From: Promethearchaeota archaeon
Lineage (GTDB): Archaea; Asgardarchaeota; Lokiarchaeia; Sigyniarchaeales; SOKP01
Direction: 5' to 3'
DNA: 11,459 bases
Assembly: GCA_048938445.1 (NCBI GenBank)
Contig: JBHLME010000139.1
Location: forward strand, 1-11,459
The translations under genes were made by a program, and so were the position numbers. This document shows, one piece after another, positions 2,761-10,133 of the stretch; the stretch's first letter is position 1, and each line of letters starts with the position of its first letter. The notes beneath the pieces were generated by a model. That model saw nothing but the letters and a program-made list of their open reading frames with translations, did not search any database and was not told the DNA's origin.

Positions 2761-3333
2761 ATGGGTAAAGAACAGTTAATCACCGCCTTAAAGTTAATAG
2801 AACGAGATTTGATTGAGAACTATACTTCATACGAGGAACCGCAATTGGCTCAAGTAATATCTCAGTTTCAACGCAAGATCTTGGAGCTCAGAAAAAAAGA
2901 TCGAGATGTCCACGATAAACTGGAAACGCTGAGCGCGAGCGATCTTACCACGGTCATGAATGAAATTGATTTATGTTTGCTGTCGCCACCGGCTCAAAAA
3001 GCCAAGCTCGTGTTGGTTCTCAACAGCTTGATCATCCAAGAAGGGAAAGAAACGCAATTATTACAGATGATCAACAAGTTTAATTTCTTGAGAACGTCCT
3101 TCAAGAAATCGATGGCGAATGAAACCGCAGCAATGGTAATTACTCCAGAGAACATTGATGAAATCAGGAGTGAGTGGTTGGCGCACGATTCACCCGAGGA
3201 CTTGGCGGAAGATATGATAAATATGAACTTGAAGGATTTAAGAACAATTACAAAACCTTGGAAGATCAAGAGCAGGTCAAAAGATGGATTGATTGATATG
3301 ACGATTAATTACCTCAAAACCCAAAAAGAATAG
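2761..3333 (+). CDS. Hypothetical alpha-helical protein with possible C-terminal SAP/HeH (Rho-N-like) DNA-binding motif
   Basis: 190-aa ORF with an SD-like motif. Its coding pattern is conserved in the second copy, which shows many synonymous changes. The C-terminus MNLKDLRTITKPWKIKSRSKDGLIDMTINYL fits a helix-extended-helix pattern; that domain call is tentative. Confidence 0.8.
   Translation: MGKEQLITALKLIERDLIENYTSYEEPQLAQVISQFQRKILELRKKDRDVHDKLETLSASDLTTVMNEIDLCLLSPPAQKAKLVLVLNSLIIQEGKETQLLQMINKFNFLRTSFKKSMANETAAMVITPENIDEIRSEWLAHDSPEDLAEDMINMNLKDLRTITKPWKIKSRSKDGLIDMTINYLKTQKE
2955..3318 (+). repeat. Direct repeat copy 1 (~360 bp) of segment at 6902-7266
   Basis: Hand alignment of 2965-3318 vs 6913-7266 is gap-free, with about 42 mismatches in 354 nt (~88% identity). 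Confidence 0.97.
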
Positions 3334-5610: not shown

Positions 5611-6906
5611 ATGTCTAATCAACCTTACGAGATCAATGAAGCGGGACAGAAATTTATCGCAGATATGGAAGATATATTAAAACAAGAGATTAAAGTAGGA
5701 CGATATTCAAGAGAAATTCATGTGAGCGATGGGAACATAATTTCTGTTAATTTTTCATCAAGGAAAATAAGTAAACTTCCTGACAGCCTTTATTATCTAG
5801 AATCATTAGAAAATTTAAACTTAATGGAAAATAAAATTACTAAATTATCTGAATCAATTGGTAATTTAAAAAATTTAAAGAATTTAATAATATTTGGTAA
5901 TCCCATAAAAACACTCCCTGAAAACCTGTCTTCCTTAATAAAATTGGAAGAAATTAACGTGAGTTTTACAAAAATATCCATTATACCTGAATGGTTTGAA
6001 AACTTCACTAATTTAAAAAAATTAGAAGCTCTAAATATTAATTTAAAAGTCATTCCAGAATGCGTGAGACAGCTAAAGAATCTACGAAATTTAGAATTAG
6101 ATAGCAACAAGATACCTCAAATACCAGAGTGGATTGGTGAGCTTACAAATCTTAAAGTTTTAGGTTTATGCTCGAATCCTATCAGCACGATTCCTGATTC
6201 ATTAAAAAATCTTGTAAACCTTGAAACACTTCTTTTACATGCTTGTAAACTTGAGTTCCTTCCCGATTTCGTGTGTGATTTAAGTAACTTAGAATATCTT
6301 GAACTTGCAGGTAATAATCTTAAAACACTTCCTAAAGACCTCGGAAAACTACGCTTATTGAGAGATATCGACATTCACGATAATAAAATCACCAGCTTGC
6401 CAGAATCAATAAAATTGTTAAAAAATCTTGAAACGCTCAACCTTGAATTTAACAACTATAAAACCTTACCCGAATCATTAATGGGAATGAAAATAGCCCC
6501 ATCATTATGGTTGTGCAATAATAAGTTATCAAGTCTTCCCGATTGGTTTGCTCAAGACAATAAAGTAGGGGAATTATGTTTATCAGACAATTTGTTTGAA
6601 GAATTTCCGGAGCAATTAAAATATCTCCCTAACCTGGAAATTTTGTATATAAACAATAATAAAATCAAGGTAATTCCAGAATGGATAAGCGAGATACCAC
6701 TTTTGGAGGTATTGGACGTGTCAAACAACATGATCACGGAATTACCAGGTTTTTTAAAGGATCTTGAATTGGATGAACTTACTATAACAGGTAATCCAAT
6801 TAAAAATGTCCCTGAATGGGCCGCCTCATTAAACCGATTAGAAAGATTAAAGAAAGAACGCGAAGTATTCTCCCAGGAAAAAAAAAGAAACATAAAAAAT
6901 CCATGA
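5611..6906 (+). CDS. Leucine-rich repeat protein (~16 repeats of ~23 aa)
   Basis: Repeated LxxLxLxxNxIxxLPxxIxxLxx units. AGGTGA SD-like motif at 5601-5606. No signal peptide or TM segment is evident. Confidence 0.97.
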   Translation: MSNQPYEINEAGQKFIADMEDILKQEIKVGRYSREIHVSDGNIISVNFSSRKISKLPDSLYYLESLENLNLMENKITKLSESIGNLKNLKNLIIFGNPIKTLPENLSSLIKLEEINVSFTKISIIPEWFENFTNLKKLEALNINLKVIPECVRQLKNLRNLELDSNKIPQIPEWIGELTNLKVLGLCSNPISTIPDSLKNLVNLETLLLHACKLEFLPDFVCDLSNLEYLELAGNNLKTLPKDLGKLRLLRDIDIHDNKITSLPESIKLLKNLETLNLEFNNYKTLPESLMGMKIAPSLWLCNNKLSSLPDWFAQDNKVGELCLSDNLFEEFPEQLKYLPNLEILYINNNKIKVIPEWISEIPLLEVLDVSNNMITELPGFLKDLELDELTITGNPIKNVPEWAASLNRLERLKKEREVFSQEKKRNIKNP

Positions 6907-7266
6907 ATTGATATTGATTTATGCTTGTTATCACCACCGGCTCAAAAAGCCAAGCTCGTTTCGGTTCTCAACAGCTTGATCATCCAAGAAGGGAAGGAAA
7001 CGCAATTATTACAGATGATCAACAAGTTTAATTACTTGAGAATGTCGTTCAAGAAATCAACGGCGGAAGAGCCCGAAGCACTGGAAATTACTCCAGAGAA
7101 CATTGATGAGATCAGGAGCAAGTGGTTGGCATACGATTCACCCGAGGACTTGGCGGGAGAAATGGAAAGAATCAACTTGAAGGATTTACGAGCAATTACA
7201 AAGCCTTGGAAGCTCAAGAGCAGGTCGAAAGAGGGCTTAATTGATTTGACTATTAATTACCTTAAA
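6902..7266 (+). repeat. Direct repeat copy 2 of 2955-3318
   Basis: Homology begins at CATGAA (6902), overlapping the LRR stop codon. There is one extra T near 6908-6909; after that the alignment is gap-free at offset 3948. Confidence 0.97.
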
Positions 7267-7287
7267 AAAATAAATAATTTGAGTTAA
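6907..7287 (+). pseudogene. 5'-truncated paralog (about aa 66-186) of the 2761-3333 gene; may be translated from TTG6925 or by read-through from the LRR gene
   Basis: Reads IDIDLCLLSPPAQKAKLV... vs MNEIDLCLLSPPAQKAKLV... in copy 1. It lacks the first 65 aa, and the ATG equivalent to Met66 (6903) is out of frame by 1 nt. Confidence 0.6.
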
Positions 7288-7350: not shown

Positions 7351-7857
7351 TTAATATATTTTTATATCTGTCTTATTATTTAAATCTCTCTCAATCCAGT
7401 TATCTACAATATCATAAGCTTTATATAAATATTGATATAAAAAAAAACCATTATTATTTTCTTCACTTAGTCTATCATATAATTCATTAAAATCTCTAAT
7501 ATTATAATTTTCATAAATTTCATTAAGTGATAGCCTTGCAATTTTCTTATGACTCCATTTTCTCAACCTATTTTCTTTCTTGCTATCCATAGTATCAATA
7601 TCTTGCCATGCATTACATTCGATATTAATATCATATTCAGAAATGGTTATAACAATATTTCTTCCAATATGATTTTTATACCATCTTACCATTAATTCTG
7701 GAAGATCCCATCTCCATTTAGTATATTCAAAATCCTTTTCTCTCATATTAGGATTTTCTGCAATTTGAGCGGATATCATACTCTTTATTTGAATTTTAAA
7801 TAAGGTGAGTATTCGATCTAATTGATAATTTGTAAATTTTTTTGGATACTCGAACAT
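7351..7857 (-). CDS. Hypothetical Trp-rich protein; candidate antitoxin/immunity partner of upstream toxin-like gene
   Basis: 168-aa ATG ORF in very AT-rich DNA, starting 9 nt after the stop of 7867-8214. No family recognised; function is inferred from position only. Confidence 0.7.
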   Translation of the reverse strand: MFEYPKKFTNYQLDRILTLFKIQIKSMISAQIAENPNMREKDFEYTKWRWDLPELMVRWYKNHIGRNIVITISEYDINIECNAWQDIDTMDSKKENRLRKWSHKKIARLSLNEIYENYNIRDFNELYDRLSEENNNGFFLYQYLYKAYDIVDNWIERDLNNKTDIKIY

Positions 7858-7866
7858 ATTTTACAA

Positions 7867-8214
7867 TCATAACTCATAATTTTGATTACTAAAATTATAT
7901 AATCCAAAAATATCTAAACTATCTCTAGCACACGCTTCTATCCCCCCTCCTGGCTGCTCATACGCTGGCGCTACAGGTCTTAAATCTATTTTATCTAATT
8001 CAGGCATATTTTGAACGGGAATAGGTCCAATTCTAAATTTAGGAGTAAGAGGTAAAGCTAATAAATTTTTTGCCTTCTCTGAGGTTTCATATCGATGTGT
8101 AGTAAACCACGTACATCGAACTTTTTTGTTTAAGGTCTTTATTTGTCTATTCTCAATAATATTTCTTTTTTCTTCATCATCTGATATATAACGATAAAAA
8201 TTAATCCGAGCCAT
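7867..8214 (-). CDS. Small ADP-ribosyltransferase/NAD-glycohydrolase-fold toxin-like protein (Ntox10/TNT-like)
   Basis: FYRYIS..E (beta1 Arg), WFTT..Y (aromatic-T-T strand), AKNLLALP..PKFRI, and VAPAYEQPGGGIE, which resembles the TNT-family AP-x-F-x-QPGGG-x-Q motif but ends in Glu. Confidence 0.65.
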   Translation of the reverse strand: MARINFYRYISDDEEKRNIIENRQIKTLNKKVRCTWFTTHRYETSEKAKNLLALPLTPKFRIGPIPVQNMPELDKIDLRPVAPAYEQPGGGIEACARDSLDIFGLYNFSNQNYEL

Positions 8215-8411: not shown

Positions 8412-10133
8412 TCAACCTATTATTTGTCGAGCATTTTGTCTCCAATTATTCAGACTTGTTACTCCGACACCTTTTACTTGGCCTGCTACGAGTTTAACAT
8501 TGCAGTTTAACAAATCTTTTACAGTGAAAATATTTGCAGAATTTAATAATTTTACTTTAGCTTTTCCTATACCTGGAATGTCGGTCAGGGTATATTTTGA
8601 ATCTTTTATCAAAGTTAATTGAGGTTGCTCCTTTTTCATTAAATCAGGAGTAGAATCAATTTGAATTTCTTCGCTTGCATCAGAACCACATTCTGCACCC
8701 TTTAATCCTTGTTCTTTTAACATCTCAATATTTGATGAAGTATATTCAAATAATTTGATATTATTAGCATCTAAGACATCTTGAGCACCTGAAGTGATTG
8801 AGTTTGGTGGGCATATAAAGAATGCAAAGTCTCCTTTATCTGGTTTATATTCAATATTTTTCATTCGTAAGAGCCAATTCGCAAATTTTTCAATTTTGCC
8901 CTTCATTCCTGATCGATGCATCATTGAAACTTCTCCAAAAGCTCTTTCTCTATGTGTTGTTCGCTTAGTTTCGGCACTTGCTACTATATCTACATCATAT
9001 CCGCCAACTTTTTTTATTTCAGGTTCTACGTGATTGAATCCCCTCTTTAAAAGTTCAGTCTTAATGAAGTTTCGTGCATCTTCTTCGTAGATCTGTCTAA
9101 TATCGTAATCTGTATAACCAATATATCCCATACTATCAATTACATTTGCTATACACTTAAGGAGGTCTCTAGGTAAGTAATACAAAATAGAGCTTTTAAC
9201 TCGAGATATGAACGTATTGCGATCTTTGTAATCAAAGCCAATTTTATCAACAACTTGATTAATAATTGCGTCTTTTTCCCCTGCAGTCAAATTACCTAAT
9301 ATAATTTCTTTCCTATCAACAATAGTTCCGAAATTTTTACTACGACTTTTAAGCTCTGTCCACTCCATTTTGTTTGGGTTTTCTAAACACGAGACTAATA
9401 TGTAAAGTTTTTGTCTTGCAAATTGCTCCATTAAATAACGGATGAATTTTTCTAAAAATAATTTAAGTAGAACATTTGATCTATCAATTTCATTTAAAAA
9501 TTGTATTTCATCAAACGCTATTACCACCAAATAATCTAAATCTATAAGAAGCTTTATTAATCCATAGAATAAGTTACTTATCATATTGCTTTCGAGTTCA
9601 TCACCATAAAAGAATTCATATGCCGTATCTTGGTCATTTGGATCTAAAGATGAGAGCTTTATGAGATTATCAATTATTTTTTTGTTTTTAAAGATCTTAA
9701 ATAACTTATTTTTTCTTTTCGCAGCTGGAAGTTTTTCCATCACATCACGGATTGGATAGGATTCATTATTTACATCAAAAAGCTGTTCGATAATTTTCCC
9801 TATAAATATAAACCAAAATTCTTCAACATTTTCCGAGATAGCTTTAAAATCAAAAAAAAAGAATAAATTTGAACCCGGAGCGAGTTCTTCCATATAGTCT
9901 TTCACTTGAAATTTAATTAGAGTAGTTTTTCCTGCACCATTCGCTCCAATAATTGGTCGAATTTGTGTAACCTTTTGATTATACACATTAAGAATGTCTT
10001 GACGGAATATTTCTGAGATATCTTTATTTAAGAAATTAGAACTTGCCTTTATTCCCTCATCACTCGTAGATTTTAGGGGATGCATTACTTTACGTTCAAG
10101 ATAAATCCATTTTTGGGGAAATCCTTGCTCCAA
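8412..10133 (-). CDS. P-loop (AAA+/archaeal-ATPase-like) NTPase fused to PD-(D/E)XK/Mrr-like nuclease-fold domain and C-terminal helix-hairpin-helix domain
   Basis: Walker A GANGAGKT (9947-9924). Walker B VVIAFDEIQ (9528-9501). REase-like YEEDARNF..KRGF..GGYDVDIVA..AFGEVS..AFFICP..ITSGA..NNIKLF (~9089-8745). HhH LTDIPGIGKAKVKLLNSANIFTVKDL..VKGVG (~8590-8415). The true start may be upstream, at ATT10169. Confidence 0.85.
   Translation of the reverse strand: MEQGFPQKWIYLERKVMHPLKSTSDEGIKASSNFLNKDISEIFRQDILNVYNQKVTQIRPIIGANGAGKTTLIKFQVKDYMEELAPGSNLFFFFDFKAISENVEEFWFIFIGKIIEQLFDVNNESYPIRDVMEKLPAAKRKNKLFKIFKNKKIIDNLIKLSSLDPNDQDTAYEFFYGDELESNMISNLFYGLIKLLIDLDYLVVIAFDEIQFLNEIDRSNVLLKLFLEKFIRYLMEQFARQKLYILVSCLENPNKMEWTELKSRSKNFGTIVDRKEIILGNLTAGEKDAIINQVVDKIGFDYKDRNTFISRVKSSILYYLPRDLLKCIANVIDSMGYIGYTDYDIRQIYEEDARNFIKTELLKRGFNHVEPEIKKVGGYDVDIVASAETKRTTHRERAFGEVSMMHRSGMKGKIEKFANWLLRMKNIEYKPDKGDFAFFICPPNSITSGAQDVLDANNIKLFEYTSSNIEMLKEQGLKGAECGSDASEEIQIDSTPDLMKKEQPQLTLIKDSKYTLTDIPGIGKAKVKLLNSANIFTVKDLLNCNVKLVAGQVKGVGVTSLNNWRQNARQIIG

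Follow-up and report, generated by a model that had tools for sequence, protein, structure and literature searches.

A stand-alone ADP-ribosyltransferase-like protein and its adjacent partner on a Promethearchaeota contig: a candidate toxin-immunity pair

Toxins of the ADP-ribosyltransferase (ART) fold that are held in check by the product of an adjacent gene are well known, and include Tne2-Tni2, TreTu-TriTu, TNT-IFT, DarTG and MbcTA. The toxin gene comes first in DarTG, and antitoxins of the DarG, ParS and MbcA types are macrodomain hydrolases or Xre-type proteins. The present analysis concerns a pair of small genes on contig JBHLME010000139.1 of a Promethearchaeota archaeon (GenBank assembly GCA_048938445.1), the entire length of which, 11,459 nucleotides (nt), forms the window considered here. 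One gene encodes a protein of 115 amino acids (aa) that looks like a minimal ART toxin, while the other, directly downstream, encodes a 168-aa partner that may be its immunity protein or antitoxin. The pair departs from these systems in four respects. The libraries searched describe neither sequence family. The putative toxin would be a catalytic core of ~110 aa standing on its own, and it joins a Tne2- or TNT-like shape to an R-[ST]-E residue pattern. The partner, for its part, belongs to a new family. The accessible portion of the literature on ART toxin-antitoxin (TA) systems in Asgard archaea and on Tox-ART-HYD1 yielded no description of such a pair, which is no proof of absence.

The putative toxin: family, fold and catalytic positions

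A first-pass annotation of the window had described two open reading frames (ORFs) 9 nt apart. Both are there, on the minus strand, and every motif that it quoted is found in the predicted translations, including AYDIVDNW in the 168-aa partner. The two ORFs are real genes and not chance ORFs: the 115-aa protein has 72 relatives, and a profile of the partner family that excludes the 168-aa sequence still gives it 59.3 bits (E 1.9e-20). The label "orphan", which the annotation had attached to the toxin, fits neither protein. Both are members of families, although neither has an over-threshold model in Pfam, NCBIfam, PADLOC or PHROGs, and neither matches any PADLOC family (PADLOC-DB 2.0) at E ≤ 1.

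For the 115-aa protein, a HMMER search of 1.84 billion representatives returned 72 cluster representatives at E ≤ 1e-3, 30 of them at E ≤ 1e-10. A word-indexed search found a single relative, with 45% identity, and none of the partner, a scarcity that reflects the sensitivity limit of that search and not orphan status. Nearly all 72 representatives are stand-alone proteins of 94-131 aa, in which the domain fills the protein from its Met start or first residues.

A few relatives are longer. In P0061, a metagenome protein of 455 aa, pentapeptide repeats come after the family domain and a TIR domain closes the chain (TIR_2, E 4.5e-23), so that two NAD+-using folds occur within one protein. In P0074 (631 aa), a TadE-like N-terminus is combined with a C-terminal family domain at residues 520-619, and in P0070 (257 aa) the domain is likewise C-terminal. 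The P0064 cluster (246 aa; 4 of 5 members are 235-246 aa) has the domain plus an unexplained C-terminal extension. In this cluster and in a frame of genome G124 (L004:1342-2328), the toxin-like domain is followed by an extension of 130-200 aa in which echoes of the partner motifs (W-D, G-R, W..D) can be seen by eye. P0064 and the 329-aa G124 frame (L004/P0099) were considered as natural toxin-partner fusions, a reading that finds no support, with hhalign E values of 0.11 and 0.43 and no match to the partner hidden Markov model (HMM).

The AlphaFold2 model of the 115-aa protein, built on a 50-sequence alignment, has a pLDDT of 92.7 and a pTM of 0.85. When 48,161 solved chains were searched with an aligner independent of Foldseek, the top match was the NAD+-hydrolysing enzyme (NADase) Tne2 (6B12; Z 8.8, rmsd 3.0, 97 residues aligned), and the next row followed at Z 6.4. 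Nearly all of the best 50 rows are ART, NADase or Tpt1 folds. They include KptA (Z 6.2; KptA/Tpt1 chains 5.5-6.2), Scabin and TreTu (5.5 each), Rhs1-CT (5.3), DarT (4.9), and TNT and MbcT (3.2 each), together with protein 6b, CARDS, CopC, TreX, Tse6, Arr, SPN and the pertussis, diphtheria and LT A chains. Foldseek also placed Tne2 (6B12) in its first row (E 0.12, prob 0.94, TMq 0.58), with fungal NADases, CC0527, TreTu, TNT, Scabin and Tpt1 in the rows after it; against viral models it gave weak rows only, the best at E 0.018. The nearest neighbours in the ESM Atlas include Tox-ART-HYD1, TreTu_C, TNT and clusters of Rhs tips. On the combined grounds of AlphaFold2 confidence, both structure searches and the ESM Atlas neighbours, the predicted ART/NADase fold is well supported. 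The ART-like fold first proposed for this protein is thus upheld by a high-confidence prediction whose closest solved structures, in Foldseek as elsewhere, are NADase and ART toxins.

When solved structures were searched by sequence, neither the toxin nor the partner, the toxin-family profile or P0070 gave anything at E ≤ 10. The 115-aa protein itself has no match to the Pfam TNT model (PF14021). Sub-threshold TNT matches were found in 6 of 50 relatives scanned singly, the best at E 0.016. P0070 and P0037 add two further such matches, of which that in P0070 reaches 16.7 bits, below the gathering cut-off of 27, and in these two the match covers the half of the domain with PGGG-x-E. Tox-ART-HYD1 (PF15633) is matched weakly by P0065, whose residue at the R8 position is H (E 0.078, 14.1 bits against a cut-off of 25), and by none of the 50 aligned family members. 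These sub-threshold TNT and HYD1 matches may be taken as leads; membership is not established by them.

According to PMC13285283, the catalytic triads of ARTs are spread over strands beta1, beta2 and beta5, and the H-Y-E and R-S-E classes are named for them. Of 94 unique members of the toxin family, 83 have R and 3 have H at position 8, 70 have T and 19 have S at position 38, and 90 have E and 1 has Q at position 93. Other conserved positions are R61 (90 of 94), G89 (93 of 94) and E15 (86 of 94). In the model, R8 lies on the strand formed by residues 5-10, T38 lies on strand 35-38, and E93 opens strand 92-96 after the GGG loop, a placement that would follow the beta1/beta2/beta5 logic of ART triads. 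The occasional change from R to H at position 8 is what that site would lead one to expect. The family shows what defines the R-S-E clade, namely an R on beta1, an S or T on beta2 and an E at the start of beta5, all conserved, and the R-T-E order that had been likened to that clade from the start is conserved family-wide as R-[ST]-E.

A strictly conserved Gln occupies the catalytic cleft of TNT-type NADases (Rhs1-CT, Tne2, Tse6, TNT and AfNADase), as stated in PMC10539506, and the earlier remark that these enzymes carry Gln where the present family has Glu agrees with that text. Just after the GGG loop, at the presumed equivalent of the TNT Gln position, members of the family carry E instead of Q. 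In its predicted shape, the 115-aa protein is nearest to a NADase, and its residue pattern is that of an R-S-E transferase. The odds between NADase and ADP-ribosyl transferase chemistry are about even.

The partner family and its linkage to the toxin gene

A profile of partner proteins retrieved 20 proteins at E ≤ 1e-3, all of which are unnamed or "hypothetical" and none of which carries a Pfam domain. The motifs of the family are WRWD.P, RN (RN[IL]), NAW.D and R.W. Across 26 sequences D51, W84 and D86 are invariant, and W48, R49, W50, P53 and N82 are nearly so. No Pfam immunity model matches the partner. What the first-pass annotation called an unknown partner is still unnamed and lies outside the libraries searched, but it is a member of a conserved family with motifs of its own. 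This may well be a new family of inhibitors with its own motif set, lacking a detectable DNA-binding domain.

The linkage of the two genes was followed from both sides. Toxin-anchored loci came from a scan of genome contigs with a degenerate DNA motif (W-[FY]-T, PGGG.E), which gave 51 loci, 7 of them true by the family HMM. These 7 are hosted by metagenome-assembled genomes (MAGs) of a Lambdaproteobacteria and a Fischerbacteria member, by Pyrinomonadaceae, Thermoanaerobaculaceae, Dehalococcoidia and Chloroflexia, and by an unclassified bacterium. A same-strand ORF of the partner family lies directly downstream in all 8 of the 8 toxin-anchored loci (the window and the 7 genome loci), and the downstream proteins at the 7 genome loci are 139-185 aa long.

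Partner-anchored loci came from metagenome contigs scanned with a partner motif (W-R(CGN)-W-D, NAW.D), which gave 32 loci, 24 with a partner-family ORF. An ORF of the toxin family stands immediately upstream on the same strand in 22 of these 24, or 22 of the 23 evaluable ones, as the contig of L073 ends at the 5' end of the partner. Since L088 duplicates L068, and L065/L085 and L077/L090 score identically, some 19-21 of the partner-anchored loci are independent. All loci were chosen by sequence motifs, so that divergent or unpaired members may be under-sampled. In 30 of 31 pairs, alignment to the partner profile sets in at -13 to +64 nt relative to the stop codon of the toxin, and each of 5 bacterial genomes checked (5/5) has exactly one copy of the partner, beside the toxin. 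The tight coupling claimed for the two genes of the window is thus a property of the family, and the pair has the makeup of a type II TA system: adjacent, co-directional, tightly spaced small genes that are inherited together.

Profile scans covered 801 genomes from two phyla, 400 from the phylum of the host and 401 from another. The toxin profile matches 3 of the 400 host-phylum genomes (the host's own, G151 and, weakly, G124), and the partner profile matches 2 (the host's own and G151), although the G151 partner match is not independent, its own sequence having sat in the profile. In the second phylum, 2 of the 401 genomes match, both known already, with zero new loci. The pair is mostly bacterial, with sporadic archaeal copies. 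On this point the first-pass view of the pair is to be corrected.

The two proteins differ in their rate of change. In 19 unique complete pairs, the mean identity is 47% for the toxins and 29% for the partners, and the partner is less conserved than the toxin in 171 of 171 comparisons. The distances of toxin and partner correlate (Spearman 0.78), which shared ancestry alone could produce.

The model of the partner (pLDDT 88.1) begins with a long N-terminal helix, continues with a five-stranded antiparallel sheet and more helices, and ends in a strand. No Foldseek match to this model reaches E ≤ 1e-3, and no sequence relation to any solved chain is detectable. TriTu (Z 6.9, rmsd 3.0, 85/87 residues) and frataxin (Z 6.9) are tied among the structural matches, and AvrPphF ORF1 (Z 5.2) and Spa15 (Z 4.6) are found further down. 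A name for the fold family of the partner was rejected, as there are only generic alpha/beta-sandwich matches.

A predicted complex of toxin and partner scored 0.85, compared with 0.00 for the highest-scoring of 3 controls, and this mark is attained by 58 solved complexes out of 80 but by 2 mismatched pairs out of 110. At least 95% of contacts recur across the runs, and the partner pLDDT is at least 85. On the toxin, the predicted interface comprises Y9, W36, residues 50-55, 80, 82-86 and 88-91, and E93; on the partner, it comprises residues 48-52 (WRWD), 65/67 (RN), 82-84 and 86 (NAW.D), 97, 99 and 101 (R.W), and the last strand. In the complex model, W50 of the partner touches W36, L52, L54 and E93 of the toxin, and the contacts with the lowest expected errors join partner residues 82-84 and 86 to toxin residues 82-85 and 89. 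Conserved motifs of the two proteins are thus predicted to face each other, with the partner covering the putative active-site loop and Glu. Multimer prediction had been put forward as a check on the pair; it passes its controls, places the interface on the putative active site and, as a prediction, supports binding of the partner to the toxin. Some memory effect is possible, as solved complexes of ARTs with immunity proteins exist, although the partner is not detectably related in sequence to any solved chain. The features of the two genes are collected in Table 1.

Table 1. Positions of the two genes and their main motifs in the window
Feature	Position	Strand	Remarks
Putative toxin gene, 115 aa	7867-8214	minus	ATG start; whole protein is one domain
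Partner gene (putative immunity protein/antitoxin), 168 aa	7351-7857	minus	ATG start; alpha/beta sandwich model
Spacer, 9 nt, toxin stop to partner ATG	7858-7866	minus	
R8 codon (FYRY, strand beta1)	8191-8193	minus	First position of putative R-[ST]-E triad
T38 codon (TWFT/TWFTT, strand beta2)	8101-8103	minus	Second position of putative triad
Loop VAPAYEQPGGG-I-E, toxin residues 81-93	7936-7974	minus	VAPAYEQPGGG is residues 81-91
E93 codon (GGGIE)	7936-7938	minus	Strand start; putative catalytic Glu, centre of predicted interface
Partner motif WRWDLP, residues 48-53	7699-7716	minus	
Partner motif NAWQD, residues 82-86	7600-7614	minus	

At the junction of the two genes (7867-7855), the toxin stop TGA, the sequence TTG TAA AAT and the partner ATG share one reading frame. 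The partner frame is open straight after the toxin stop in 8 of 31 loci, and about 1 in 4 is the rate at which frames are shared by chance.

Readings of the pair and its surroundings

The pair is probably an autonomous, cytoplasmic two-gene toxin-immunity module, similar to a type II TA system, that works by occlusion of the active site. The 115-aa protein would be a minimal enzyme of the ART superfamily with an R-[ST]-E triad, using NAD+ either by hydrolysing it, as a NADase, or by ADP-ribosylating a universally conserved target. The 168-aa partner would be co-translated from the same operon and bind the toxin 1:1, its beta-sheet face (WRWD, RN, NAW.D, R.W) lying over toxin loop 82-93 and E93 and thereby blocking the access of NAD+ or substrate. 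Once the partner is lost or titrated, the toxin would be free. The analysis bears out the fold, the conserved residues, the linkage of the two genes and their changing surroundings, and it predicts binding and the interface; toxicity, the NAD+ chemistry and this mode of release are inferred. As the cassette is present in archaea and in several bacterial phyla, its target would be common to both, and NAD(P)+ itself is the simplest candidate.

Several observations weigh against this reading. Foldseek gave no PDB match to the toxin model at E ≤ 1e-3 (best 0.12), and no Pfam ART or TNT model reaches its cut-off in the relatives scanned (best 16.7 bits against 27). R8, T38 and E93 are presumed, from predicted strand positions, to match known catalytic residues in space. 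The fold of the partner is a common alpha/beta sandwich whose best match, at Z 7.6, is below the informative level. The complex was built on our own alignments, and the calibration counts given for its score hold only roughly here. Most type II antitoxins bind DNA, and no HTH, RHH or AbrB model matches the 9 partners scanned.

The linkage also has its exceptions. In L095, the partner gene (1842-2285, minus) has no toxin upstream; the upstream ORF at the contig end, which by eye we take to be a fragment resembling a RelE/ParE-type toxin, is followed by a 98-aa ORF. In L070 (759-1157, minus), the toxin is split across two frames, covering profile positions 1-71 and 71-113, next to an intact partner, which points to decay of the toxin or to an error in sequencing. 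Genome G151, of a related archaeon, has downstream of its toxin a gene (L003) whose likeness to the partner is marginal, with 7.0 bits in a leave-one-out test and no significant BLASTP match.

Among other readings, the best placed is a sub-case of the toxin-immunity module itself, namely an abortive-infection or defence module, as distinct from a TA of the plasmid-addiction type, in which the partner senses phage or is degraded and so frees an NAD+-depleting toxin. All of the evidence given above applies to it equally, and P0061, with its fusion to pentapeptide repeats and TIR, points the same way. No common set of genes surrounds the pair: the 76 ORFs that flank it at 30 loci are housekeeping genes that vary with the locus, such as tRNA synthetases, ribosomal protein S20, Trp synthase, transketolase and G6PD, and also a DNA methylase, Uma2, RepA_C, HFX_2341_N and, at 4 loci, transposases. 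The presence of a DNA methylase, Uma2 or transposases beside some copies is in keeping with defence. So is the neighbour of the pair in the window, a 573-aa P-loop NTPase (8412-10133, minus) that is encoded on the strand of the toxin gene, 197 nt upstream of it, and has a weak PADLOC AbiLi match (E 0.0013). This protein also has weak NPHP3_N/AAA/NACHT-like matches and a C-terminal helix-hairpin-helix (HHH_5, E 8.7e-7), and it may be a defence gene. However, it is not found beside the pair at the other loci examined, neither protein of the pair matches any PADLOC model, and searches of plasmid and phage collections (tblastn) gave no homologue of the toxin. A defence role is tentative, and on balance unlikely.

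A second reading makes the pair the cassette of a secreted polymorphic toxin, in which the ART domain is delivered to competitors and the partner protects sibling cells. The nearest structural and feature neighbours of the toxin (Tne2, TreTu, Rhs1-CT, HYD1 and Rhs clusters) are indeed tips of effectors from type VI secretion systems (T6SS), of Rhs proteins and of effectors from type VII secretion systems (T7SS), and toxin first with immunity directly downstream is the gene order of polymorphic toxins. Rare fused forms exist in P0074 and P0070. L082 has two tandem partner-family ORFs (80-553 and 674-1108, plus) after one cut toxin gene, an arrangement that resembles an immunity-gene array, and the orphan partner of L095 would also be at home in such an array. 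On the other hand, the ART domain fills the 115-aa protein, leaving no room for a delivery domain, and the same is true of nearly all 72 representatives, with their 94-131 aa. No T6SS, T7SS, Rhs, contact-dependent inhibition (CDI), PAAR, VgrG or LXG genes are found among the 76 flanking ORFs, and a library scan found no secretion-related families in the window. The absence of a delivery domain, noted from the outset, is thus borne out, and the secretion-linked setting of a polymorphic toxin is lacking. We consider a delivered toxin quite improbable.

Least likely of all is a non-toxic enzyme, carrying out Tpt1/KptA-like 2'-phosphate removal or reversible ADP-ribosylation, with the partner as its substrate, chaperone or specificity factor: KptA/Tpt1 chains do score Z 5.5-6.2, and the partner fold is as near to type III secretion system (T3SS) chaperones (AvrPphF ORF1, Spa15) and frataxin-like sandwiches as to immunity proteins (TriTu), but the sporadic distribution (3 of 400 and 2 of 401 genomes) and the variable, partly mobile genomic context argue against housekeeping, an interface predicted on the conserved loop and E93 fits inhibition better than substrate presentation, and the partner diverges much faster than the enzyme.

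Within the toxin-immunity reading, a bolder version can be framed, though it is speculative and we would not expect it to hold in full. In this version, the pair is a cross-domain, NAD+-targeting conflict module that serves abortive infection or addiction in Asgard archaea, Acidobacteriota, Chloroflexota and other bacteria, with a ~110-aa R-S-E ART that would be among the smallest and an immunity fold of its own. If the cassette does work in both domains, as this version has it, then the target would have to be universal, such as NAD(P)+, a conserved nucleic acid or a translation component.

Two other genes of the window bear on the nature of the host. In a 538-aa protein (940-2556, plus), a PCI domain has a Ras/Roc GTPase domain on either side, and a protein of 431 aa (5611-6906, plus) is of the leucine-rich-repeat (LRR) type; both are eukaryote-like signalling proteins of a kind typical of Asgard genomes. 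In the host genome, moreover, matches to the actin family reach 424 bits, and one to EAP30 exceeds its cut-off. The earlier suggestion of a probable Asgard archaeon is consistent with the actin-family, EAP30, Ras/Roc and LRR matches, although these are not in themselves proof. The GC content of the module, 24-26%, is near that of the AT-rich window as a whole.

A direct repeat of 300 nt with 88% identity occurs at 2961-3260 and 6909-7208. The 190-aa ORF at 2761-3333 has a truncated paralogue of 120 aa at 6925-7287, right beside the module but on the other strand, and neither of the two matches a family.

The pair is of interest for several reasons. A stand-alone core with a TNT/Tne2-like shape and an R-[ST]-E pattern could shed light on what makes such an enzyme hydrolyse NAD+ or transfer ADP-ribose. 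In the partner there would be a new family of inhibitors whose contact motifs are clear and open to testing. The module is found in an Asgard-type archaeal genome, where toxin-immunity biology has been little explored. Both genes are small, so that the pair is easily synthesised and directly testable.

Comparison with described toxin-inhibitor pairs

The best structural match to the putative toxin is found in Tne2-Tni2, an NADase effector of the Pseudomonas protegens T6SS and its immunity protein, in which a domain of ~119 residues is likewise encoded next to its immunity gene. Tne2 and the 115-aa protein have 10% sequence identity, and Tni2 has no detectable relation to the 168-aa partner. 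The 115-aa protein stands alone, whereas Tne2 forms the C-terminal tip of an effector of the PAAR/T6SS kind. Moreover, Tne2 and the other TNT-type NADases keep the Gln described in PMC10539506, whereas the present family has Glu in 90 of 94 members.

A second pair to compare is TreTu-TriTu of Salmonella Rhs1 (PDB 7ZHL/7ZHM). TreTu is also a minimal ART toxin, of ~113 residues, that matches the 115-aa protein at Z 5.5, and TreTu_C is among its feature neighbours in the ESM Atlas. TriTu is tied among the best fold matches of the partner (Z 6.9), within the range of a common arrangement. There is no sequence-level match to either TreTu or TriTu, and TreTu is the tip of an Rhs protein, unlike the stand-alone protein described here.

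The Tuberculosis necrotizing toxin (TNT, PF14021), which is paired with IFT, is a structural match at Z 3.2 and is echoed in the sub-threshold sequence matches of some relatives. It differs in that the 115-aa family has Glu for the conserved Gln, and R or H on beta1. Tox-ART-HYD1 (PF15633), paired with Imm-My6CBD, is a neighbour of the 115-aa protein by ESM Atlas features and by structure. The conserved pattern of HYD1 is H, [RK], [FY], [DE], as given in PMC3482391. This pattern has H at the first position, where the 115-aa family has R in 83 of 94 members, and the HYD1 toxins, too, are Rhs, T6SS or T7SS tips, unlike the 115-aa protein.

A further group for comparison comprises the cytoplasmic systems DarT-DarG, ParT-ParS and MbcT-MbcA. 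Their toxins are larger (~180-220 aa) and belong to other ART clades than the 115-aa protein, and the 168-aa partner, unlike the antitoxins of DarTG, ParTS and MbcTA, has neither a macrodomain nor an Xre-type domain. The logic, however, would be the same: a cytoplasmic, NAD+-using ART toxin that is neutralised by the product of the adjacent gene.

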